A program made the position numbers and the translations under genes. From an uncultured Erysipelotrichaceae bacterium (GTDB lineage: Bacteria; Bacillota_I; Bacilli_A; Erysipelotrichales; Erysipelotrichaceae): 32,000 nt of DNA. The notes under the pieces are model-generated. The model was not told where the DNA came from. It did no database searches and worked only from the letters and a program-made list of their open reading frames with translations. This document shows, piece after piece, positions 6,377-17,956 of this stretch (positions within the stretch are counted from its first letter, which is position 1; each line of letters starts with the position of its first letter). Where the stretch lies: positions 60,001-92,000 of the forward strand of contig CAYNZZ010000002.1 in NCBI GenBank assembly GCA_964401865.1, written 5' to 3'.

Positions 6377-8533
6377 ATGTATTTATTAGAAGTTTATGTC
6401 ACTAATTCCAATTTAAAAGTTGATCGTCCTTTTGTCTATTATTCACTTAAAAAGGTAAATAAATACGCAAGAGTCAAGGTTGACTTTAATAATAAAAATA
6501 CAACAGCTATTGTGTTTGATATTAAAGAATATAGTAACTCTTTAGAAGAACTGAATAATGATTATGGTTATCAAATTAAAGAAATAAGATCCATTGTTGA
6601 TGATAGTCCTGTTTTGAATGATAAGCAATTAGAGATAGCTAGATGGTTAGCCAAAACAACAATTTCGCCATTTATATCATGTTTGAATGTCATGCTTCCC
6701 AAAATCCTTAAAACATCCACAAATATAAAAGAGAGTAAAAAAGAAATATTTCTTATCAAAAAAAATAGTGATAGAGTTTTGACCAAAAAACAAAACGAAG
6801 TTTTAAATATGTTACCAGAAGAAATAACACTTAAAGATGCAAATAAAATTTCTCCTTCTATCATCAAGAAATTAGAGGAAAGCGGATATCTTTCAAGAGA
6901 AACTAGAGAAAGCGAATATAAGAATATTAAACCGCTGAATATCGTAAAATTTAAGAAATTAACAAGCGACCAACAGGCGGTTTACGATAAAATGATTCAA
7001 AGTGAAAAAATTGTTTCTCTATTATTTGGGGTTACCGGTTCAGGCAAGACTGAGGTGTATCTTCATCTTGCAAGATTTTACCTTTCTTTAGGTAAGGAAG
7101 TACTTATCTTGGTGCCTGAAATATCTTTGACACCTCAGATGATTTCAAGAGTTAAAGAACGTTTTTCAGATGTTATATTTTTTCATTCAGGTCTTAACGA
7201 CACTGAACGATATGAACAGTATAAAAGGGTAATAAGAAGCGAAGCTAAAATTGTTGTCGGCACAAGATCTAGTATCTTTTTGCCATTTAATAATCTTGGA
7301 TTAATTATTATTGATGAGGAACACGATTCATCATATAAGCAGGACTCTATTCCGTTATATGAAACCAGAAATGTCGCTAGAAAAATAGCAATGATGCATA
7401 ATGCAAAGGTTTTGTTGGCTAGCGCAACTCCGTCGCTAGATAGCTATACTAGAGCTTTAAAAGGCGATTATAATTTGTTTAGATTAGACAAGAGAATCAA
7501 TTTATCTTTACCCAAGATTTCTATTGTTGATATGTCTTTGATGCGAAATAAAAAATCTAGTATCATCAGCAATGAATTGATAAAAGATATTGATGAAGTT
7601 TTATCCAAGAAACATCAAGCGATCATTTTACTGAATAGACGAGGTTATTCGCCGATTATCAAATGCGCTGATTGTGGGGAAGTGATGAAATGCCATGACT
7701 GTGATATACCTTTGAGCTATCATAAAGATGAAAATATTTTAAAATGTCATCAATGTGGTAGAACATACAAGATTATCAAAAATTGCCCTAATTGTCATAG
7801 TAATGATTTAGTTTATTATGGCTTTGGAACTAAAAGAATAGAAGAAGAGATTGAAAGGTTATTTCCAAGTGCTAGAGTTAAAAGAATGGATAAAGATAGC
7901 ACAAATAAAAAAGGAGCACATGAGCGGATTCTGAGCGAATTCGACCGACATGAAATTGATATTTTGATTGGTACTCAAATGATTGCTAAAGGACTAGATT
8001 ATCCATTGGTTGAATTAGTTGGTATTATTAATGCCGATGCCGGTCTAATGCATCAAGATTACAATGCTGCTAAACAAACTTTTGACTTACTGATGCAAGC
8101 ATCTGGAAGAAGTGGCCGTAGTGATATTGAAGGAAAGGTTGTAATACAGGCTTTTAATCCAAATCATTATGTTTTAAAAGCTGTTATGAAACAGGACTAT
8201 AATTACTTCTATAACATTGAAATGAACTATCGAAGAAAAGCCGGATATCCACCATATACTCATTTAATAGCTATTTATTTACATGATATATATGTCAATA
8301 GATTGGAAAATAGTAAAAAAATACTTATTGATTTACTTAGTGACTGTACATTTCGTAAATATCCGTTAGTAGATATAAATAAAATAAACAAGTTACATCG
8401 ATCGAGAATTATTATTGTAGATAAGGATTTGATTTTGATGTTGAATTATTTAACTAAAATAGTTAATTTATATATATCTAATAGTAACATATCTAACATA
8501 AAGATCGATATTGATCCTAATTATCTGGAGTGA
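6377..8533 (+). CDS. priA: primosomal replication-restart helicase PriA
   Basis: Walker A GVTGSGKTE, DEEH box IIDEEHD, and a Cys-rich zinc module (CADCGEVMKCHDC...CHQCG...CPNCHS). 718 aa. Confidence 0.93.
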   Translation: MYLLEVYVTNSNLKVDRPFVYYSLKKVNKYARVKVDFNNKNTTAIVFDIKEYSNSLEELNNDYGYQIKEIRSIVDDSPVLNDKQLEIARWLAKTTISPFISCLNVMLPKILKTSTNIKESKKEIFLIKKNSDRVLTKKQNEVLNMLPEEITLKDANKISPSIIKKLEESGYLSRETRESEYKNIKPLNIVKFKKLTSDQQAVYDKMIQSEKIVSLLFGVTGSGKTEVYLHLARFYLSLGKEVLILVPEISLTPQMISRVKERFSDVIFFHSGLNDTERYEQYKRVIRSEAKIVVGTRSSIFLPFNNLGLIIIDEEHDSSYKQDSIPLYETRNVARKIAMMHNAKVLLASATPSLDSYTRALKGDYNLFRLDKRINLSLPKISIVDMSLMRNKKSSIISNELIKDIDEVLSKKHQAIILLNRRGYSPIIKCADCGEVMKCHDCDIPLSYHKDENILKCHQCGRTYKIIKNCPNCHSNDLVYYGFGTKRIEEEIERLFPSARVKRMDKDSTNKKGAHERILSEFDRHEIDILIGTQMIAKGLDYPLVELVGIINADAGLMHQDYNAAKQTFDLLMQASGRSGRSDIEGKVVIQAFNPNHYVLKAVMKQDYNYFYNIEMNYRRKAGYPPYTHLIAIYLHDIYVNRLENSKKILIDLLSDCTFRKYPLVDINKINKLHRSRIIIVDKDLILMLNYLTKIVNLYISNSNISNIKIDIDPNYLE

Positions 8534-8535
8534 AA

Positions 8536-9741
8536 ATGAATCAAAGAACATTAGCTTTTCAAATATTAAATGCAACCATCAATAACGGCGAATATGCTGG
8601 CTTGATGATGAAAAACGAATTAAATAAGCTTCCTTTAATCCAAAGGGCTTTTGTAACAGAACTCGTAAATGGTGTCTTGAGACATTTTTATGAGCTTCGT
8701 GCCCAATTCAAAGATGAGGGTAAGATATCTTCTAAAGTTGAAATCATTTTATCAATGGCTACATATGAACGTTTTTTTCTTAAACAAAAAGACTATGTCG
8801 TATTTAATGAGTATCCAAACTTAGTCAACAAGAAAGGCGAGAAGAGTTTTATTAGTGCTATTTTGCATAAATTGAACAATTATGTCGAATATCTTGGTGA
8901 TGATGATGAGAAGTTATCGATTCATTATTCTCTTCCTTTATGGATGATTAAACTTATAAAAAAACAATATCCTCAAAGGGAATTTAGAACATTTTTAGAT
9001 AATGTAAATAAAATTCCACAAGTTTTTTATCGAATAAACAAGCGCAAGACAAACTATGCTTACCTTAGTGACAAATATGATATTAAAATAATCAATGAAG
9101 ATACTTTTACGTCTAATCAAAATTTGATCAATACTAGTGACTTTAAAGAAGGCTTATTTTATATCCAAGATGTTAACAGTTCTAAGTTGTATCATTATTT
9201 AGGGCTTGAAAAAGACAACACTTTATTAGATGTCTGCAGCGCACCCGGTGGTAAGCTATTCAATGCTTTGGATATCATAAAGCCAACTAATGCGTATGCT
9301 AATGATTTTCATGAACATCGTTTAAATTTGATTAAAATGACAGCGAAGAAGCTTGGTTTTGATGAGATTAATTATTTAAATCATGATGGACGCTATTTAA
9401 AAGATAAGATAAATTTGGAATTTGATCGCATTTTATTAGATGTGCCTTGTTCTGGGCTTGGAATCTTGAGACGTAAACCAGATTTGAGATATCACATTAA
9501 ACCTGAAAATCTTGATGAATTACAATTACTGCAAATGGAACTGGTGGAAAACAACATTCCTTTGTTAAAAAAAGGTGGAATCCTTGTCTATTCAACTTGT
9601 ACAATTAATAAAAAAGAAAATGAAAGGCAGGTAGCGGCTTTGCTTGAAAGGCATAGCGATATGCATCTTTTGGAAGAAAAGACTTTTGTTGGCGAAGATG
9701 ATGGCGATTTATTTTATGTCGCTAAAATCAAAAAAGATTAG
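8536..9741 (+). CDS. rsmB: 16S rRNA (cytosine967-C5)-methyltransferase RsmB
   Basis: NusB-like N-terminal domain plus SAM-MTase motifs DVCSAPGGK, DVPCSGLG and the catalytic Cys in YSTCT. GGAG at 8527-8530, then ATG at 8536 (alternative GTG at 8530 overlaps the priA stop). Confidence 0.9.
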   Translation: MNQRTLAFQILNATINNGEYAGLMMKNELNKLPLIQRAFVTELVNGVLRHFYELRAQFKDEGKISSKVEIILSMATYERFFLKQKDYVVFNEYPNLVNKKGEKSFISAILHKLNNYVEYLGDDDEKLSIHYSLPLWMIKLIKKQYPQREFRTFLDNVNKIPQVFYRINKRKTNYAYLSDKYDIKIINEDTFTSNQNLINTSDFKEGLFYIQDVNSSKLYHYLGLEKDNTLLDVCSAPGGKLFNALDIIKPTNAYANDFHEHRLNLIKMTAKKLGFDEINYLNHDGRYLKDKINLEFDRILLDVPCSGLGILRRKPDLRYHIKPENLDELQLLQMELVENNIPLLKKGGILVYSTCTINKKENERQVAALLERHSDMHLLEEKTFVGEDDGDLFYVAKIKKD

Positions 9742-9843
9742 TATAATGAAAGTGTGAAAAACTATTTCTTCAATTATTGGAAAAGCCTTTAAATAAGGGC
9801 TTTCCTGTAATTGCGTTTAATAGAAAACAGTCATAAATTAACA

Positions 9844-9867
9844 CTGTAACTAACATAAACTAACAAA
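9844..9867. repeat. left boundary direct repeat (attL-like): CTGTAACTAACATAAACTAACAAA
   Basis: Matches 16849-16873 except for a single-A indel. It contains an internal tandem AACTAACA x2. Confidence 0.75.
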
Positions 9868-9870
9868 TTA

Positions 9871-9900
9871 AGAGGGCAAATTAGCCCTCTATTTTTATTT
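9871..9900. terminator. hairpin AGAGGGC-aaatta-GCCCTCT plus T-run
   Basis: 7-bp GC-rich stem (9871-9877 / 9884-9890) followed by ATTTTTATTTT on the plus strand. The stop codon of the integrase relic (9883-9881) lies in the loop. It now acts as the first strong terminator downstream of rsmB. Confidence 0.7.
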
Positions 9901-10030
9901 TATTTACTTCTTGTATTAGATATTTAATAGGTGCGTGTGTGTAAACATCATCGGTTATATCTTGACTAGAATGTCCCATAATTTTTTTGCGTGCATATTC
10001 GCTAAGAGCCATAGAAATCGCCAAGCAAGC
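9881..10030 (-). pseudogene. 3'-terminal relic of a tyrosine recombinase / phage integrase (49 codons)
   Basis: The minus-strand frame reads ACLAISMALSEYARKKIMGHSSQDITDDVYTHAPIKYLIQEVNKIKIEG*. The (L/M)GHSS...T...YTH block is the box II / catalytic-Tyr signature of tyrosine recombinases. The frame is closed upstream by TGA (10033-10031) and nothing upstream looks integrase-like. Confidence 0.65.
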
Positions 10031-13000
10031 TCATACGAAGGTATTAAGAATATAGTATCTAATACTAATACCGCACAAGATATAGAGTATAACTTCTTAA
10101 AAGCATTTAGGAATGCAAAGATTGACACTTCAAATATTAAAGTAGCTGGAGATTTAGTGTATAGTACGAATTCTAATTTTGAAGATGCCGTTGAATCCAT
10201 TAGTAATGGAACATTTACTAGTTCAGCTAATGCTATAGAAGTGCGAAATAATTCTCCTAAATGGATGACTGATTTGGGCTACAACGATTATCCGATGCTT
10301 ATGACAGAAAATCATATAAAAAATGGCATGGGAATTGGCGCGAAAGGAAACCAACACAATATTTCAAAAGAGACTTTTAAGCAACTTCCTAAATTATTAG
10401 AAGATCCAATCGGTGTATTTAAGTATCAGAATGATAGTATTGTCGCTTTAGTAAAAGCAATAGATAATGATAATCGTGTTATGTTAGTTGCGATTAAACC
10501 TGACGGAAGTGGAAAATATAACAATGTTGATATTGATTCAAACTTTATTTTAAGTTCTTATGGAAAAGAAAATTTAATTAGTTATTTTAACAAAAAACTT
10601 GATGGAAATCTAATTTACCCAGCCGGAAAAACAAAAAAAGATATCATTACTGAGACTCTTTGGCTCCAATTGCCAAAGAAACAGTCTATCGGAAGCTCGA
10701 GGCTCCAATCGCCAGGGACATCCGATGGATATCTTTATGACAATAATATCTCAAATAATGAAACAAATGTCAATAAGAATTCTTTACCGATAGAAGATTA
10801 TTCAAATTCTACTAATACAGAAACAGAGACAAATAATCGCAAACAAAAGCAATTAGATATTATTCTAAAAGAAAATCCAGTTTATGATGATTACCACACT
10901 TGGATTAGTAATATAGATGATATAAAAACATTTGAAGAAACACTCCAAGATAGTGATTGGGAAGGTTGGGAAGAAAGCGATTTCGATCCTGATTATACAG
11001 GGCATATGGCAAAAGAAGCGTTGAATAATGGCGAAATCACCGTATACAGTTCAAATCCTATTGAAAATGGTATCTTTGTAACTCCTTCAAGAATGGAAGC
11101 AGAATCATATTCTAGCAATGGACAAGTGTATTCAAAGAAAATGAATTTGGATGATATAGCCTGGATAGATCCAACGCAAGGAATGGTAGCTAAGATTGAT
11201 AATAACAAATATTCTATTGATCTAAATAATGATGAGCAACAAAATAATTCTTTTAATATAAATAGAGCTAAGAAACTATCTCCTAATTCTTTTACCAAAA
11301 ATGGAAGTTTATTAAGTACAATTAAACAATTATTGAATATGAAAAAAGACCCAGGAAGATATGGTTTTGTGGTTACTGATACAAACGATGCTCTTGACTT
11401 TATTGGTATAAATAGTGAGATTTATCTAGATAATAAAACTAGAAGTAAAATCAACAATAAGCACGGTATAAGCGATGAATTAATAGCTGACTTATTAGAT
11501 AATATTGACGATTATGTAGTATTGGGAACTGATTATGTTGACAATAGAAACAAAACACCTTTAAAAACTGCTATCTTAGAAAAAGGAGATAATATTTATA
11601 TTCTTTCCTTAAAAGGTAAGGATGTTAGAGGGTATGAAGTAAATAATATTTCGAGTTTATATGATAAAGACAATTTCTCTGAATATTTGAATGGTTTAAT
11701 TGAAAATGGCAACAAACTATATAAAAATGAAAAAAGCGACAATTTTGTATCGCGTTTTACCCTCGCAAGGGGTAGCGTGGATACGGCTGTCGCTTCTAAT
11801 AACAATATCTCAAATAAATCATCAAATGTCAAATCTAACGAAACATTAGATTATATAGAAGATCAATACAATATCAAAGATGAAAGAATAAATGAACTAT
11901 ATAACAAAATGGTAGATGAAATAAAGAATGATGGTTTTATATATGATGATACTTATAATGAGATAGTTGATTATATTGTAGAGAATGCCAAAGTAGAAAA
12001 CATCAATCCATTAAAAGAAGATGCTAAGGAATTCTTTAAAAACAGAACTTTCTATTTGCCATCAAAATATTCAAGAGATATATCAGGCGAGAATATGTTC
12101 ATCACTAATCAAAGTTTACCTAACGGAATGAAACTTACTAAAAATGTGAACGCTGAAAGTTTAGATTCTGCGCTTCATGAATTTGAAAGCAAACATCCGG
12201 AAATAGGGGACAGTTGGGGCATTGATGAAACCGACCGTTTAAATAGTCTATTAAATTTATTGAGAAGTGATGATTATGTTTCTTTAAAACAAATTAACGG
12301 CGAAGAAATGTTAAGACAAGATGCTATTAGTGATTTAAATAGATTTATTGATGATATATATCTTGAAAATGATATCCAAAAATATAATGATTCTTTAAAA
12401 GAATACGGATCTATTAAACAAGGCGAAAGTCCAAAAACGGATTTTGAAGCACCTAAACAAACCGATGCCAATACCAAGACCAGACAATTTGTAAGAACGA
12501 TAGGTGAAAGCGGTGTTATGGATAATGAAGCCTTAAAGGCCGAAATAGGCAAAGGGACATTTGCTTATCGCCCTGAATCTAATAAAAGATTAGTTGAAAG
12601 AGCTAAAAAAGAATTAGACGGTTTAAGTAAAGAAGATGCTTTATATAGGTTCTATACAAGTAAAAACAATTCATCTAGAATTGCAAAGGGTGAAGTCTTA
12701 TTAAATTACTTAGGTTCTATCGGTGATACAGAAAATGCCATTAAGGTTGCTTCTGAATTAGCCACTCAATTAACTGAGGCCAGTAAACAAACTCAGGCAT
12801 CTAGAATTTTAAAACGCTTAACTCCTGAAGGTAGACTTGTAACTTTAGAACAAAACATCAATAAAATTCAAAATATCCTTGATATCAATCATGGAAATAA
12901 AGAAATTGAAATTGAAGTTCCAACTGAATTAAAAGAAAAAGTATTAAACAGTAAGAATGAAACCGAGTTAAATCAAGCGTTAGAAGAAATATCTAGAAAT

Positions 13001-15502
13001 GTCGCTGAACAGATACCGCCAACATTAAAAGATAAACTTGATACTTGGCGTTATTTATCAATGCTTGGAAATCATAGAACTCATATCCGTAATATACTTG
13101 GCAATGCTATCTTTTCGCCGGTTGTCGATATTAAAAATTATGTAGGAACAGCTATAGAATCTTTCGCTCAAAAACAAGGTCTTATCGATACCAGAACTAA
13201 AACTTTATTACACAATCATATGAATGTCAGTGATAAAGCATTATACGATTTTGCCAAAGCTGATTATGATAGTTTCGCTAAAAATATTATCCAAGAAAAT
13301 GGTAAGTACGATATTAGCGAACTGGTGCAAAAATATAAAAAAGCCTTTAAAGACAAAGGTGTAGGTAAATGGATAAATAAGGCTGCGGAATTAAATGGAA
13401 AATTATTAGATGCGGAAGATATCCTTTTCTCTAAAAACAGATACGCAAAATCTTTAGCTCAATATATGAAAGCTAATAATCTAACCGAGAACGATGTAAA
13501 TACCGAACTATTCCAAAAAGGTCAAGATTATGCGATGCAAGAAGCCTTAAAGGCGACATATCGTGATGATAACATGATAGCTAATTGGATAAACGAATTT
13601 GCCAACATAAATAAAGTTACTCGATTTATTACAGATGCAGTGCTTCCTTTTAAGAAAACACCTATGAACATTGTCAAAAGAGGTATTGAGTATTCGCCAG
13701 CTAATCTTTTATACACTGTAACTAAAAGGGCCGGCGATCTAAAAAGCGGAAAGATTACCGCTAATGAATATATCGATAGTTTATCGCAAGGTTTAACCGG
13801 AACAGGTATTGCCTTATTAGGAATGTTTTTAGCATCAAAAGGCATCTTGAAAATTACAGACGATGATAAGGACCGTAAACAAAGATACGATAATGAGTTA
13901 GGAGAACAGACTTATTCAATTCAATTTCCTTTTGGTTCTTATACTATAGACTGGGCATCTCCGGTAATTATGCCAATGGCAGTTGGTGCGGAATTATGGC
14001 GACAACTATTTGAGGAAAGTGATGATAATTTTGGCGATAGAGCCTTAGACATGATTACTTCGGTAGCTGAACCAATATTCGAAACTTCAATGTTGTCGGG
14101 GCTAATGAATATGATAAATTCTTATGGCGATGGAAACAGTGCAAAAGCGGTGGATATGATACTCGGTGCTACAAGTTCTTATGCACTTCAATATATCCCA
14201 ACAGGATTAGGTCAAGTAGCTAGAATAATAGATGGTACGCAAAGAACCACATATCCAAATAAAGGGGCTGTGGATAAATTTAAGCGACAACTATTTAATA
14301 AAATTCCGTGGTTGTCTATGTTGAACCAACCATCTATCAACTCTAAAGGCGAAGAAGTACAAAGAGAAGACTTAGGAATGGGAATGTTTGGTAGATTCTT
14401 ACTTGAATCGTCTCCAGGCTACTATAAATCAAATAAGTCTGATGAGTTCTCTGATGAGCTGTTAAGACTATATGACGCGACAAGCGAAGATAATGTATTA
14501 CCTGCAAGCAGTACAACTCAAATCAGTTATGATGGGGAAAAATACAAATTATACGATGAAGAATTTACAAATTTCCAAAAGACCAAGAACAAGTTAGGCT
14601 ATGACTATGTACAAGAGTTTATGAATTCAATGGGTTATTCTTCTTTGAATGATAGTGAAAAAGCGGGTATCATAAGCGATATTAGAGATTATGCAACCAA
14701 ACAAGCCAAGAGTGAGTTCTTAGGAACAAGAGGAGTCGATTTCGAAGACACCGGACTAGATAAGATTAATGGTGCATTAGATAATGATATAAACTTATAT
14801 GATTACTTTGCTACCAAAAATGAATATAATAGTTTAAATGGCGATGATAAGAAATTAGATTATATTGATCATCTAGAAGATAGCGATATTTCAAGTTCAG
14901 GTAAAAACTATATGTATGATATACAGTACGGAGATTCAAAATTCGCTAATTCAATTAACGATTTTGCCGATGATTACAATGTTGACGATAAAACAGCATT
15001 TGAAATCAAGAAGACCAGTACCATTGAAGGAGTGAAAGATAGTAACGGTAATACTATCCCTAACTCAAAAGCTCTGCAAGTAAGAAAGGAACTTGAAGAT
15101 TTAGGACAGTATGATAATTTAATTGATTATCTGTCAGATAACGGACTAAAGCCAAATGATATCGGTTTAACTAAGAAAGTAGTTTCTATGAGCGATAATG
15201 AATTTATGAGCGAGTATGAATCGATGTTTAGCGGTAGGGCAGTAGCTGATATTCCATCAACAAAACGCACTCGTTCAAATACTTCTAAAAAGCAAACACA
15301 AGCAATGATTAAAAAGATAAAGAATATAAGTGGTGATACTTATAAACAAATAAATGACATTCTTGAAAGGTTTGTTTATAACAAGAAATCAGTAAATTCT
15401 AGCAAAGTTAAAGTAGAATTTCAAAAAGCCGGTTTAACAGACATAATTCAAAAATATTTAAAAGAAAATCCATATGTCGATAAGTCGGTGTTTGGACTAT
15501 AA
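9935..15502 (+). CDS. giant 1855-codon ORF, phage/ICE polyvalent-protein-like, probably 5'-truncated (true start unknown)
   Basis: Uninterrupted 5.57 kb frame in AT-rich DNA. Contains two paralogous ~165-aa modules, a middle domain, a long helical region and a hydrophobic core. The first ~35-50 codons are simply the antisense of the integrase relic. No SD-preceded start is found in the first ~400 nt. Confidence 0.6.
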   Translation: MCVNIIGYILTRMSHNFFACIFAKSHRNRQASSYEGIKNIVSNTNTAQDIEYNFLKAFRNAKIDTSNIKVAGDLVYSTNSNFEDAVESISNGTFTSSANAIEVRNNSPKWMTDLGYNDYPMLMTENHIKNGMGIGAKGNQHNISKETFKQLPKLLEDPIGVFKYQNDSIVALVKAIDNDNRVMLVAIKPDGSGKYNNVDIDSNFILSSYGKENLISYFNKKLDGNLIYPAGKTKKDIITETLWLQLPKKQSIGSSRLQSPGTSDGYLYDNNISNNETNVNKNSLPIEDYSNSTNTETETNNRKQKQLDIILKENPVYDDYHTWISNIDDIKTFEETLQDSDWEGWEESDFDPDYTGHMAKEALNNGEITVYSSNPIENGIFVTPSRMEAESYSSNGQVYSKKMNLDDIAWIDPTQGMVAKIDNNKYSIDLNNDEQQNNSFNINRAKKLSPNSFTKNGSLLSTIKQLLNMKKDPGRYGFVVTDTNDALDFIGINSEIYLDNKTRSKINNKHGISDELIADLLDNIDDYVVLGTDYVDNRNKTPLKTAILEKGDNIYILSLKGKDVRGYEVNNISSLYDKDNFSEYLNGLIENGNKLYKNEKSDNFVSRFTLARGSVDTAVASNNNISNKSSNVKSNETLDYIEDQYNIKDERINELYNKMVDEIKNDGFIYDDTYNEIVDYIVENAKVENINPLKEDAKEFFKNRTFYLPSKYSRDISGENMFITNQSLPNGMKLTKNVNAESLDSALHEFESKHPEIGDSWGIDETDRLNSLLNLLRSDDYVSLKQINGEEMLRQDAISDLNRFIDDIYLENDIQKYNDSLKEYGSIKQGESPKTDFEAPKQTDANTKTRQFVRTIGESGVMDNEALKAEIGKGTFAYRPESNKRLVERAKKELDGLSKEDALYRFYTSKNNSSRIAKGEVLLNYLGSIGDTENAIKVASELATQLTEASKQTQASRILKRLTPEGRLVTLEQNINKIQNILDINHGNKEIEIEVPTELKEKVLNSKNETELNQALEEISRNVAEQIPPTLKDKLDTWRYLSMLGNHRTHIRNILGNAIFSPVVDIKNYVGTAIESFAQKQGLIDTRTKTLLHNHMNVSDKALYDFAKADYDSFAKNIIQENGKYDISELVQKYKKAFKDKGVGKWINKAAELNGKLLDAEDILFSKNRYAKSLAQYMKANNLTENDVNTELFQKGQDYAMQEALKATYRDDNMIANWINEFANINKVTRFITDAVLPFKKTPMNIVKRGIEYSPANLLYTVTKRAGDLKSGKITANEYIDSLSQGLTGTGIALLGMFLASKGILKITDDDKDRKQRYDNELGEQTYSIQFPFGSYTIDWASPVIMPMAVGAELWRQLFEESDDNFGDRALDMITSVAEPIFETSMLSGLMNMINSYGDGNSAKAVDMILGATSSYALQYIPTGLGQVARIIDGTQRTTYPNKGAVDKFKRQLFNKIPWLSMLNQPSINSKGEEVQREDLGMGMFGRFLLESSPGYYKSNKSDEFSDELLRLYDATSEDNVLPASSTTQISYDGEKYKLYDEEFTNFQKTKNKLGYDYVQEFMNSMGYSSLNDSEKAGIISDIRDYATKQAKSEFLGTRGVDFEDTGLDKINGALDNDINLYDYFATKNEYNSLNGDDKKLDYIDHLEDSDISSSGKNYMYDIQYGDSKFANSINDFADDYNVDDKTAFEIKKTSTIEGVKDSNGNTIPNSKALQVRKELEDLGQYDNLIDYLSDNGLKPNDIGLTKKVVSMSDNEFMSEYESMFSGRAVADIPSTKRTRSNTSKKQTQAMIKKIKNISGDTYKQINDILERFVYNKKSVNSSKVKVEFQKAGLTDIIQKYLKENPYVDKSVFGL

Positions 15503-15530
15503 AGGGAGCTTAATTGCTCCCTGTTTTTTA
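15503..15530. terminator. terminator hairpin AGGGAGC-ttaatt-GCTCCCT plus T-run, shared by the convergent giant ORF and abi
   Basis: 7-bp stem directly after the TAA stop (15500-15502), followed by GTTTTTTATT. The abi stop codon is at 15540. An identical copy lies at 16784-16804. Confidence 0.8.
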
Positions 15531-15539
15531 TTGTTAAAA

Positions 15540-16475
15540 TCATATTTTTTCTTGTTTTATGCAATGACTATTTATTAAGTATAAAGTACTTTTCCAGTTT
15601 TTTTCAAAACCGTAGTCTTTGATAAAATCAGCTTTATAATGTTTTTCAATATTTTTTATTTTTTCTATTACTCGCTTACCCAAACTTTGATTAGGATTTA
15701 CATATAATAAAGACAAAACCAAAGCATATGTAGAACTTGAATCGAATGAACCTAAAGCGATTTTGGTCGGATTGTATTGCATAGGTTTAATAGGGTGTTT
15801 TTTTCTATATAATCTTTGATAATGGCAACATTGATTTCTTAAATAAGAAACAGAATGGTAAAGGCTTTCCAATTTTTCGTAGCTAATATCGTTATATCCA
15901 ACTTTTAAAACAGCCTTTTTATCTTTTGTTTTTAGTGTTGAGTAAAATTTTGAAATCATGCCTAGAGACATCAGTTCAACTAATGCCCAGATAGGAATGA
16001 AACCGTTATAAACTTTGTTATGGTGTTGAACGATTAGGTTATATGAATTCTTTTTATTAACATCACTGCAACGTTTTAAAAAATCTATAACTTCACAATA
16101 ATTTGATTGATTTTTAATAAAAAAGTTTGACGGTTCTAGATAACCCAAAGAACCATAAGTTAATGCAAAATAATTAGCTATTTGTGTTTTTAAATACACC
16201 TCGATATCATTTATCAATTCAAAAAGAGCAGAACGAATTTCTTTATCTACTATGTATATGTTATAAATTTGCTCGAATGTTATATTATCTTTAAATTTAT
16301 CGTTAGAATCTAAAAAATCAATCATATATCCACTTAAACGATAGTAATTCTCGTGTTTAAGAATACATAAAGCATTATCTGGATTTTTGACAATTAGTTT
16401 TTTATCGTTAATAAGGTGATTTAATTGTTGTTCAAAAGTTAAGGCAGGTTTCATTTTTGCTTCTTTCTTTTCCAT
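15540..16475 (-). CDS. abortive-infection protein, Abi_2 (AbiD/AbiF-like) family, HEPN-type
   Basis: Family-typical YYRLSGY near the N-terminus and SYLRNQCCHYQRLY (R-x4-H) near the C-terminus. Start chosen at ATG 16475 (MEKKEAK...) because AGAGG lies 7 nt upstream. The ORF-track start at 16508 has no SD. Confidence 0.85.
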   Translation of the reverse strand: MEKKEAKMKPALTFEQQLNHLINDKKLIVKNPDNALCILKHENYYRLSGYMIDFLDSNDKFKDNITFEQIYNIYIVDKEIRSALFELINDIEVYLKTQIANYFALTYGSLGYLEPSNFFIKNQSNYCEVIDFLKRCSDVNKKNSYNLIVQHHNKVYNGFIPIWALVELMSLGMISKFYSTLKTKDKKAVLKVGYNDISYEKLESLYHSVSYLRNQCCHYQRLYRKKHPIKPMQYNPTKIALGSFDSSSTYALVLSLLYVNPNQSLGKRVIEKIKNIEKHYKADFIKDYGFEKNWKSTLYLINSHCIKQEKI

Positions 16476-16542
16476 AAATACCTCTAAAAAAAGAGCATTC
16501 TGGGCCACATTGTTAAGAGGTGCGAATGCTACGATTAATCAA

Positions 16543-16570
16543 ATTATACCAATTTTATTAAAGTTGTCAA
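16543..16570 (-). promoter_or_regulatory. consensus sigma-A promoter for abi (TTGACA-16 nt-TATAAT)
   Basis: On the minus strand: TTGACA = 16570-16565, a 16-nt spacer, TATAAT = 16548-16543. It lies about 65 nt upstream of the abi ATG. Confidence 0.75.
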
Positions 16571-16625
16571 ATTATTTGTGTTGTCTAAACGCTAAAATAA
16601 ATATTATTTTATATATTGAGAGAAG

Positions 16626-16658
16626 AAAAAAAGATGATACAATGTTTCGCCTCATCTT
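16626..16658 (-). terminator. possible minus-strand terminator/insulator upstream of the abi promoter
   Basis: AAGATGA (16631-16637) / TCATCTT (16652-16658) with a 14-nt loop. On the minus strand it is followed by T7 (16632-16626). The stem is weak and AT-rich. Confidence 0.35.
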
Positions 16659-16783
16659 GAAAGTGATGATATATAAGGTTTTTAAAACCGTAACATCATA
16701 TTGCGACTCACTAAAAAGAACTCAGACATTTATCACACCAAAGGGCAGAGAAACATTTAGAACATTGTTTTTTAAAGATTATT

Positions 16784-16810
16784 AAGGGAGCTTAATTGCT
16801 CCCTTTTTTG
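16784..16810. repeat. second, identical copy of the AAGGGAGCTTAATTGCTCCCT terminator hairpin
   Basis: A 21/21 match to 15502-15522, followed by TTTTTTG. Flanking similarity extends a few nt upstream (GAYTATWAAGGG) and more loosely downstream (TTGTTTWATGCAAT). Confidence 0.85.
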
Positions 16811-16848
16811 TTATTTTTGTTTAATGCAATATTTTCTTAATATTTACT

Positions 16849-16873
16849 CTGTAACTAACAATAAACTAACAAA
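16849..16873. repeat. right boundary direct repeat (attR-like): CTGTAACTAACAATAAACTAACAAA
   Basis: Matches 9844-9867 with one extra A. It lies 48 nt upstream of the rlmN ATG. Confidence 0.75.
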
Positions 16874-16921
16874 AAGTTCACTTTATGCCCTAAATAAAAG
16901 AAAATAATATATAATGAAAGA

Positions 16922-17956
16922 ATGAAAAAAAATATCTACGATTATAGTTTTGAAGATTTAGAAAACTACTTATTAGAAAACGGAAGTAAGAAGTTTCATG
17001 CTAAGCAGATTTTTAAGTGGCTATATGAAAAAAGAGTAAAAGATTTTACTTCAATGAGCGACTTATCAAAAAAGTTGCAAGAATTGCTCATAAGCGATTT
17101 CGATATACCTAGTTTAGAAGTAGCTGCTAAACAGGTGTCACGCGATGGAACTACAAAATACTTGTTTAAGCTTAGCGATGGTGCGCTAATCGAAAGTGTG
17201 TTAATGATTTTTGATTACGGAAATAGTGCATGTCTTTCTACTCAGGTTGGATGTAATATGGGTTGTACTTTTTGTGCGAGTGGACTTTTAAAAAAACAGA
17301 GAAACTTGACAGTTGGAGAAATAGTTTTACAAGTTTTAGAGATCCAAATGTATCTCGATGAAAAAGATGAACGTCTAGGAAATTTGGTTTTAATGGGTAC
17401 TGGAGAGCCCTTTGATAATTATGAAAATGTCATGAAAGCTTTGAGCATCATTAATCATCCATATGCTTTAGAAATCGGTGCAAGACATATTTCTATCTCG
17501 ACTTGTGGTTTAGTACCGATGATTTATCGTTTTGCTGACGAAGATGTGCAATACAATCTGGCCATTTCTTTACATGCTTCAAATAATGAACTCAGATCTA
17601 AACTTATGCCCGTGGCAAGAGCTTATAGTTTAGAAGAACTATTTAAAGCATTAAAATATTATAGTGATAAAAACAATCGTCGTTTAACTTTTGAATATTT
17701 ATTGCTTAAGGATATAAATGACAAATCATCTAATGCTGATGAATTAAAAGAACTGTTAAGTGGTTTAAATGCATATATCAATCTAATACCTTATAACAGC
17801 GTTAAAGAGAATGATTATACATCTTCCAGCGAGAAGGCGACCTTGGAATTTTACGATATGCTTAAAAAAAGAGGAGTAGCTGTTACTTTGCGACAGAAAA
17901 AAGGCGATGATATCGATGCTGCTTGTGGACAATTGAGAGCGAATTATAAAGGATAG
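16922..17956 (+). CDS. rlmN: 23S rRNA/tRNA adenine-C2 methyltransferase RlmN (radical SAM)
   Basis: Radical-SAM Cys triad GCNMGCTFCASG and the C-terminal catalytic Cys context DDIDAACGQL. 344 aa. Confidence 0.93.
   Translation: MKKNIYDYSFEDLENYLLENGSKKFHAKQIFKWLYEKRVKDFTSMSDLSKKLQELLISDFDIPSLEVAAKQVSRDGTTKYLFKLSDGALIESVLMIFDYGNSACLSTQVGCNMGCTFCASGLLKKQRNLTVGEIVLQVLEIQMYLDEKDERLGNLVLMGTGEPFDNYENVMKALSIINHPYALEIGARHISISTCGLVPMIYRFADEDVQYNLAISLHASNNELRSKLMPVARAYSLEELFKALKYYSDKNNRRLTFEYLLLKDINDKSSNADELKELLSGLNAYINLIPYNSVKENDYTSSSEKATLEFYDMLKKRGVAVTLRQKKGDDIDAACGQLRANYKG

Follow-up and report, generated by a model that had tools for sequence, protein, structure and literature searches.

The rsmB-rlmN locus and its empty site

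The DNA analysed here (the window) is a stretch of 32,000 nt from an uncultured Erysipelotrichaceae bacterium (GenBank assembly GCA_964401865.1, contig CAYNZZ010000002.1, positions 60,001 to 92,000 of the forward strand), and the subject of this work is a 7-kb insert that separates the host genes rsmB (8530-9741) and rlmN (16922-17956). The host gene order is priA (6377-8533) and rsmB on the left of the insert, and rlmN-PP2C-PASTA kinase-rsgA-rpe on its right. In agreement with an earlier interpretation made from the letters alone (the sequence-only reading), which had noticed that rsmB and rlmN lie 7.2 kb apart within an otherwise conserved priA...rpe order, the gene positions and neighbours confirm this distance. 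The gap contains a minus-strand open reading frame (ORF) of 47 codons, a plus-strand ORF of 1,855 codons (the giant ORF), a minus-strand Abi_2 gene and approximately 400 nt of non-coding DNA; a 91-amino-acid (aa) ORF at 16510-16785 had no family match in Pfam and PHROG scans.

Same-species contigs, approximately 24 in number, were gathered by an exact look-up of the RlmN protein, and one of them (L003) carries the empty site, with an rsmB-rlmN gap of 12 nt and a junction that reads GATTAG-TATAATGAAAGA-ATG. The window and L003 are 99.4-99.5% identical, the left flank being alignable to 9777 and the right flank from 16882, and both flanks overlap one common 65-nt stretch of L003, which places the crossover core at the 11-nt TATAATGAAAG present at 9742-9752 and 16910-16920. 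The attL core, located by a three-way comparison with L003 and the repeat family, directly follows the rsmB stop codon, and the attR core, located by a three-way comparison with L003, ends 1 nt ahead of the rlmN ATG. On each side of the core, approximately 25-30 nt show imperfect homology: positions 9753-9777 are phage-derived and imperfectly mimic the 5' end of rlmN, and the phage likewise supplies positions 16882-16909, an imperfect imitation of the 3' end of rsmB. Moreover, the rsmB-rlmN gap measures only 5-70 nt in approximately 45 loci of related Erysipelotrichaceae and other Bacillota. With an empty attB in a relative and a duplicated core flanking the insert, the 7 kb are a genuine insertion, namely a prophage with lambda-like attL-int geometry. 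The sequence-only reading had proposed an integrated-element remnant with this geometry, and had suggested that an empty site be sought in relatives; both points are borne out by L003, a member of the same species, and by the tail of the integrase gene (int), which is directed at the left end.

The insertion parts rlmN-prpC-prkC-rsgA-rpe from priA-rsmB, which are tightly coupled in the empty site (12-nt gap), and terminators now lie between rsmB and rlmN in the insert carriers. No promoter scoring at least 9/12 was found ahead of rlmN in the carrier sequence; a TATAAT within the TATAATGAAAG core stands 6 nt before the rlmN ATG. The junction was additionally considered as an integration hot-spot, a possibility that was rejected: gaps of 2.4-4.4 kb in L026, L030, L044 and L056 contain host genes and no mobile elements. 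The genes at these junctions (L030 and L044 being Longicatena loci) include a TldD/PmbA pair, DsbD with a redoxin, an ABC-F ATPase and Pta. The rsmB-rlmN junction is therefore not tight in all Erysipelotrichaceae, and none of those inserts looks mobile.

Repeats inside the ends

Two repeats in the same orientation that differ by one indel had been taken by the sequence-only reading as the boundaries of the insert. Both are present exactly, one of 24 nt at 9844-9867 and one of 25 nt at 16849-16873 (plus strand), but the comparison with L003 places the junctions at the 11-nt core, outside the repeats. The left repeat comprises two AACTAACA units 10 nt apart and lies in the P' arm, 92 nt inside attL, and the right repeat comprises two such units 11 nt apart in the P arm, 37 nt inside attR. 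The 25-mer had no chance matches in 100 shuffles, and four of the five copies of the AACTAACA octamer in the window fall inside the two repeats. Since these positions are those at which the arms of lambda-type attP sites carry the arm-type sites of the integrase, the AACTAACA pairs are probably integrase arm-type binding sites.

The decamer of the arm repeats, GTAACTAACA, also occurs in unrelated phage contigs of the IMG/VR collection (L429, L433, L436, L437 and L439-L441), as 4-5 tandem units spaced by 11-12 nt. Such tandem GTAACTAACA units suggest a recurrent protein-binding iteron.

The integrase relic and the deletion junction

The relic of a tyrosine integrase gene occupies 9881-10030 on the minus strand. 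Its translation reads ACLAISMALSEYARKKIMGHSSQDITDDVYTHAPIKYLIQEVNKIKIEG up to the stop codon (the ORF proper spans 9881-10024) and comprises the last approximately 48 codons, with the catalytic tyrosine in a GHS...YTH box; some 320 upstream codons are deleted, and what is left corresponds to the last approximately 13% of the gene. The relic matches phrog_1 (integrase) with an E value of 1e-4, and positions 318-362 of a 373-position profile, built from integrases that adjoin giant-gene homologues, with an E value of 1.5e-8. The two matches agree on the 3' end of a tyrosine recombinase reading towards attL, as the sequence-only reading had described. With only these terminal codons present, the element is a remnant for which self-excision is impossible. 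A bidirectional intrinsic terminator detected by a terminator scan at 9871-9890 ends the int relic on the minus strand, and on the plus strand it would block read-through from rsmB ahead of the giant ORF.

The deletion junction itself can be placed at 10025-10033, given that integrase homology stops by approximately 10030 and giant-protein homology begins at 10034. A direct reading of the homologues P0001 and P0002 at this point sets ...SLGYRLYEGIKN... against ...QASSYEGIKN....

The giant ORF as a truncated virion gene

The giant ORF (5.57 kb) extends from a GTG at 9935 to 15502 on the plus strand, and had been described by the sequence-only reading as completely intact, a claim that the homologues contradict. 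A protein search in which the best 8,000 word-sharing candidates were scored yielded 655 proteins that match at E<=1e-5, the best of which are 2,314-2,784 aa long. In BLASTP, homology starts at ORF residue 34, which corresponds to residues 730-824 of the homologues P0001-P0007 (for example, ...QASS-YEGIKNIVSNTNTAQDIEYNFLKAFRNAK in the window against ...SLGYRLYEGIKNLTNSSDRAKQIEYNFLKAFRDSK in P0001). Codons 1-33 are instead antisense to the integrase relic, and the frame is open from 9935 because this antisense stretch happens to contain no stop codon. The absent N-terminal part of approximately 730-820 residues, which every close homologue possesses, is conserved across the family and includes an HExTH motif. 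Thus, what remains is not a complete coding sequence but a pseudogene fragment (10034-15502, plus strand) that comprises the 3' 1,822 codons and the stop codon of a phage polyvalent/internal-virion protein gene.

Within this fragment, a PBECR/MuF_C domain lies at 10343-10618 (Pfam MuF_C, E 1.7e-23, in two stretches), followed on the same strand by a conserved module at 10856-11311 and by an internal-virion-like helical core at 12797-14713. ORF residues 34-435 and 433-673 (10034-11950) both align to a single region of P0001 (residues 730-1125 and 772-1007, respectively), and this doubled alignment, together with the two MuF_C stretches, points to PBECR modules that were putatively duplicated or shuffled within the protein, as compared with its nearest homologues.

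The nature of the giant gene can be read from phages in which it is complete. Contig L009, from which P0002 derives, carries a P22-type portal gene, approximately 12 virion genes, a giant gene of 2,589 aa and then a convergent integrase gene, beyond which lie an Abi_2 gene and an S24 repressor gene (both on the minus strand), as well as early genes in divergent orientation, RecT among them. The giant gene of L010 stands near the prophage end, with small ORFs and host genes after it and without Abi. A profile of the conserved C-terminal core matched 529 IMG/VR stretches, mostly on contigs of 20-45 kb, and a tyrosine integrase gene lies convergent downstream of the giant gene in 22 of the 82 loci analysed, in 10 of these 22 within 130-530 nt. 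The late genes of related phages end with the giant gene, beside a convergent integrase.

Homologues of the giant ORF carry PF18760, PF18798, PF18812, PF18819 and PF18838 (ART-PolyVal and LPD domains); a Pfam run on full-length homologues found only MuF_C. Packaging and injection are predicted for polyvalent proteins (Iyer, Burroughs, Anand, de Souza and Aravind, 2017; PMC5512222), and the giant family resembles them in combining several disparate domains and in being encoded among virion genes (L009, L010). As for the core, ORF residues 991-1536 match an 'internal virion protein D' of the T7-like phage ProddE in tblastn (22% identity, E 3e-7). An AlphaFold2 model of residues 955-1593 (pLDDT 80.8, pTM 0.74) superposes on polyvalent proteins of the BFVD database, named PolyVal ART and LPD3, with TM scores of 0.78-0.90, and on BFVD 'internal virion proteins' of cyanopodoviruses and a pelagiphage with E values of 1e-9 to 1e-12 and TM scores of only 0.4-0.6. 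The core had no match in Pfam, PHROGs, PDB sequence searches or PDB Foldseek. Collectively, weak sequence similarity and predicted-fold similarity suggest that the giant protein is a phage internal core or ejection protein fused to effector domains; as a virion component it would have no obvious function in a cell from which the remainder of the phage is absent. Like polyvalent proteins, and possibly related in its core to the internal virion or ejection proteins of podoviruses (T7 gp16 position), it is a multi-domain giant with a PBECR/MuF_C domain whose homologues are encoded at the end of the virion block; in contrast to its homologues, the window copy is devoid of its N-terminal region.

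The fragment is presumably a non-functional leftover that is not expressed, because it has lost its native start, promoter and N-terminal region, is preceded by a terminator and would give a product with no virion to enter. An alternative is that a truncated giant protein is made from a fortuitous start (e.g., ATG 9971) and acts alone, for example as an RNase toxin (PBECR/MuF_C) or by excluding superinfecting phages. An ORF of 1,843 aa starting with this ATG is called in all contigs, the MuF_C domain is kept and no stop codon interrupts 5.5 kb. However, the scan detected no promoter-like site upstream of the giant ORF, inspection revealed no Shine-Dalgarno sequence before GTG 9935 or ATG 9971, the terminator at 9871-9890 precedes the ORF, the conserved N-terminal third is gone, and no function outside the capsid is known for the homologues, which are virion components (PMC5512222), so that we regard this alternative as improbable.

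Nor does the open frame speak for function. Approximately 20 contigs carry the identical remnant (99.97-100% identity, 0-4 single-nucleotide polymorphisms per 21 kb), and the empty-site strain differs by approximately 0.55% (at most 0.56%). In the giant fragment, stop-creating substitutions make up 5.4% of all possible changes and 1.7% of transitions. By our arithmetic, at most approximately 1-2 stop codons would be expected even if all of the divergence post-dated the deletion, and such a low count renders the open frame uninformative: the fragment is open because too little time has elapsed. The very recent deletion that the sequence-only reading had offered as one of two options fits these figures.

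The Abi cassette and its leader RNA

The abi gene (15540-16475, minus strand), whose presence and integrity in the window stand as first noted, encodes a protein of 311 aa of the AbiD/F (Abi_2, HEPN) family and is preceded by the ribosome binding site (RBS) AGAGG at 16481-16485. The protein matches Pfam Abi_2 (PF07751, E 1.5e-45), PADLOC AbiD (E 2e-77) and, over residues 17-296, the PbAbiF structure 8VZ6_A (E 1e-22). Its HEPN motif RNQCCH is of the RNxxxH type, LRNQCCHYQ being aligned with TRNSCCHHA of 8VZ6. Upstream, a sigma-70 promoter at 16543-16570 (minus strand; TTGACA, 16 nt, TG-n-TATAAT) scores 12/12 matches and is kept in L177, the locus of a homologue with 74% identity. Downstream, a terminator at 15495-15527 is common to abi and the giant gene, and constitutes copy 1 of a 33-nt direct repeat of which copy 2 (16777-16809) forms the outer edge of the abi cassette. 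The two copies are 91% identical and bracket the 1.25-kb cassette (15528-16776), an arrangement typical of a moron, which suggests that the moron was acquired by recombination at the terminator of the giant gene.

The promoter is separated from the RBS by a leader of approximately 50 nt (16486-16535, minus strand), which contains a hairpin and, after it, a run of seven U residues (16486-16492), and which is predicted to be an antitoxin/attenuator RNA of the AbiF type. The predicted structure consists of P1 (16524-16530/16494-16500), a bulged G (16523), P2 (16520-16522/16506-16508), an internal loop with CUCU facing AU, P3 with the closing pair 16515/16511, and an invariant 3' bulge GCCCA (16501-16505). 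The leader is nearly 100% conserved upstream of Abi homologues whose proteins share 47-74% identity, with compensatory changes in the stems, and a covariance model recovered the window leader with 62 bits (E 2e-16) as its sole match in 1.16 Mb of giant-phage and host loci. Folding stability alone is unremarkable (z = -0.5); support for the leader thus comes from conservation and covariation, not from thermodynamics. No relevant family emerged when the insert, the leader by itself and related loci were scanned against Rfam.

AbiD/F systems are characterized by an upstream region with higher identity than the gene, and by the order sigma-A promoter, non-coding RNA, terminator, abi; their RNA is a type III-like antitoxin in which a single-stranded bulge blocks the HEPN site, and Abi_2 genes at prophage ends or in lysis modules have been described (PMC13064643, PMC12373285, PMC12737573). 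The window likewise has a cis-encoded, structured upstream RNA with a promoter and a terminator. By analogy, the abi cassette would be an autonomous unit in which the partner of Abi is the upstream RNA. The promoter would drive transcription of the approximately 50-nt leader, which ends in a terminator-like hairpin, and read-through would produce the AbiF-family HEPN RNase. As in PbAbiF/AbiFr and C. difficile AbiF/RCd22, the leader may both attenuate transcription and bind and block the toxin, in the manner of a type III toxin-antitoxin system, and phage infection would free the RNase so that the infection is aborted. The antitoxin role of the leader is thus a putative one.

On these sequence grounds, abi appears to fall in the already described AbiD/F protein-plus-RNA class, to which it would add an Erysipelotrichaceae member. 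Like AbiF-AbiFr (Prevotellaceae, 8VZ6) and AbiF-RCd22 of C. difficile phi027, it is a full-length HEPN RNxxxH homologue and a prophage moron with a sigma-A promoter, structured RNA, terminator and abi in this order, an upstream region more conserved than the gene and an invariant single-stranded bulge. Unlike RCd22, which has two abiF motifs, the window leader is a single hairpin of approximately 47 nt; moreover, the gene stands beside attR rather than in the lysis module, and its leader has no match to the Rfam abiF motif (RF03085).

In contigs from SRR14167410-21 (L002, L007, L172-L176), a 1-nt deletion at 15598 affects the A8 tract of the abi strand at 15591-15598. The frameshifted Abi has 299 aa and loses the conserved C-terminus (GFEKNWKSTLYLINSHCI...; cf. 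GFPRGWES in 8VZ6) with its NWK..LY..NG.CI segment, which may reflect early decay, phase variation or a homopolymer sequencing error. On the plus strand, the stretch 16616-16805 holds a promoter-like site that is divergent from abi (TTGAGA-16-TGnTACAAT, 10/12), with the second terminator copy approximately 140 nt later; it could serve a small transcript or a 47-aa ORF (MFRLILKVM...), for which neither a family match nor conservation ahead of the L177 abi was seen.

Linkage between the giant gene and abi

The sequence-only reading had raised the possibility that the giant ORF and abi form an undescribed two-gene anti-phage system, retained by selection as a domesticated module, and had proposed to look for co-occurrence of their homologues. 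An Abi_2 hidden Markov model was built from 56 homologues plus the window and L009 proteins, and was applied to the 82 giant-gene loci, 56 of which have at least 3 kb of downstream sequence and are hence informative. Abi_2 lies beside a giant homologue in 2 of these 56 loci (L009 and L096), where the two families do stand close together. Conversely, close Abi homologues occur without a giant gene: the one with 74% identity (L177) is chromosomal and adjoins an arylsulfotransferase gene, one with 62% identity (L180-L182) follows the endolysin gene of two different tailed prophages with tape-measure genes, one with 56% identity lies between dus and phosphotransferase system genes of Amedibacillus dolichus, and one with 47% identity lies between the genes for glycogen synthase and a PRD regulator. 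No giant gene was found next to the Abi homologues P0123, P0132, P0139 and P0148.

A selected two-gene module is accordingly very improbable. Both frames are open in the window, but for the giant ORF this is expected by chance at a divergence of at most 0.56% and with a nonsense target of 5.4%, and a sub-lineage already has a frameshift in abi. In addition, the giant ORF is 5'-truncated, has no promoter or RBS and lies behind a terminator, which insulates it, and the homologues with 47-74% identity reside in chromosomes or in sipho/myo-type prophages that have no giant gene. A long open frame next to a defense gene in an insert is hence no evidence of a new system.

A probable single internal deletion of a prophage

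Taken together, the locus very probably represents the ends of a prophage that were left by one large internal deletion, with a dead fragment of a virion gene and a self-contained AbiF defense gene of a known type. In this scenario, a temperate phage would have integrated by means of its tyrosine integrase at the 11-nt core that spans the rsmB stop and the rlmN start. The parent phage probably measured approximately 35-40 kb, had a P22-type portal and was laid out like a podovirus. On its circular map, the late and virion genes would run into the giant gene, followed by the abi moron in opposite orientation, attP, and then int and the lysogeny module, both also in opposite orientation. The prophage order would accordingly be attL, int (minus), lysogeny and early genes, late genes, the giant gene (plus), abi (minus) and attR. 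A single deletion from approximately int codon 320 to approximately giant codon 730-820 would have removed the lysogeny, replication and virion genes, roughly 30 kb, leaving attL and the int tail on one side and the 3' 70% of the giant gene, the abi cassette and attR on the other. One deletion between int and the giant gene would thus explain all three parts, and the giant fragment would stand beside abi because the architecture of the phage genome was inherited, not selected. From the relatives we infer that this loss took place in a single step. Among structural and replication genes, only the truncated internal-virion/polyvalent gene remains in the window, whereas intact relatives carry portal, virion, repressor and RecT genes.

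Several observations weigh against this scenario or parts of it. The fuller versions of the element that the sequence-only reading had hoped to find did not emerge: the intact parent phage was not found in IMG/VR scans with the Abi protein or the giant ORF, each taken singly, nor in an arm-site scan, in which the arm-repeat pattern yielded 15 loci, none resembling the element. The single deletion is thus a reconstruction from relatives that are just 44-47% identical, and in one of these, L009, the order is giant-int-Abi, as opposed to the proposed giant-Abi-attP-int. A fortuitous weak promoter or start could still give a truncated protein with the PBECR RNase domain. Finally, the leader had no RF03085 match, even at E<=10 on a 161-nt stretch, and neither did the related loci, so that its antitoxin role is drawn by analogy.

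Two further readings, in which the insert is either an integrative element or satellite that is natively small and consists of these genes, or an artefact of chimeric assembly, are hardly credible. In their favor, the insert is compact, has att-like ends and contains no other pseudogene debris. Yet an element that is autonomous or mobilised by a helper could not have an integrase of 48 codons that is fused, in antisense, to an internal part of a virion gene, and a chimera is excluded by the same junction in approximately 20 independently assembled contigs from several studies.

The locus is hence a recent and extreme prophage remnant, the one live part of which is an AbiD/F member. Like cryptic (defective) lambda-like prophage remnants with morons for lysogenic conversion or defense, it has a duplicated core, arm-type repeats, int by attL, an internal deletion and a surviving moron with its own promoter and terminator. 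It differs from them in its attB, which consists of the rsmB stop and the rlmN start and is accompanied by phage-borne mimics of both gene ends, and in its extreme reduction to an int tail, a gene fragment and one moron. The locus thus offers a clean, strain-resolved case of prophage decay to the ends only, at an unusual attB between two genes of the translation machinery.

A hairpin family in gut phages

The leader hairpin is not confined to abi genes. A search with the pattern CACCTCT-N(2-20)-ATGTGGCCCAG gave at least 120 matches each in metagenome and IMG/VR collections, with a 5-nt spacing in 110 of the 120 IMG/VR matches listed. Two types can be distinguished. In type A, a CGUAG flank precedes the stem, which is followed by a U-run and an Abi_2 gene, in loci of approximately 39% GC. 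In type B, (C/U)AGGAC precedes the stem and GACAU follows it, in loci with a median of 53% GC; among the 120 viral matches listed, ARAGORN called a tRNA 2-4 nt downstream of 34. Further type-B viral copies stand ahead of virion genes or of sequences that resemble tRNA starts, and none of the 120 viral loci among the matches listed has a detectable Abi_2 ORF. In the metagenome contig L246, a promoter, a type-B hairpin and a U-run are followed by Abi_2.

In this family, P1 (which in type B contains a conserved A·A mismatch) is followed by a bulged G that faces the invariant GCCCA, by P2 (CAC/GUG), by the internal loop of CUCU and AU and by a variable P3, of which one form is C-AAC-G and the other a longer stem with a GAAA cap. 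Across 31 distinct sequences, 89.5% of cells pair, as compared with 76% in shuffles; there are 49 double-change cells, a value that none of 500 shuffles reaches, and slid controls show 28-49% pairing. On this covariation, the leader hairpin appears to represent an RNA family that is absent from Rfam 15. HDV-like (hepatitis delta virus-like) theta ribozymes (PMC10879173) were considered as an identity for the hairpin and ruled out by eye, as it lies 5' and not 3' of the tRNA and has neither P4 or J4/2 nor an upstream P1 partner.

It is possible, albeit doubtful, that the orphan copies of this family in at least 100 gut-phage contigs function as antitoxin mimics or as a phage signal that is imitated by the Abi leader. 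Under the first option, the phage copies could be RNA antitoxin mimics that are released by tRNA processing and disarm host AbiD/F systems. Under the second, the Abi leader could detect infection by imitating a signal of the phage that consists of RNA or binds protein. A third lead is a promoter-proximal RNA with a shared regulatory role; all three are leads rather than findings. RNA antitoxin mimicry has reportedly been described by Blower et al. (cited in PMC13064643) for ToxIN and the phage-borne pseudo-ToxI. The possible analogy lies in the presence of antitoxin-like RNA copies in phage genomes; unlike pseudo-ToxI, the copies found here have no tandem repeats, the toxin has a different fold and the mimics are putative. 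If the phage copies are functional, they would bear on the evasion of, or the sensing by, the ancestors of Cas13. Further members of the hairpin family were noted in L193, L197, L221, L243 and L307-L426.

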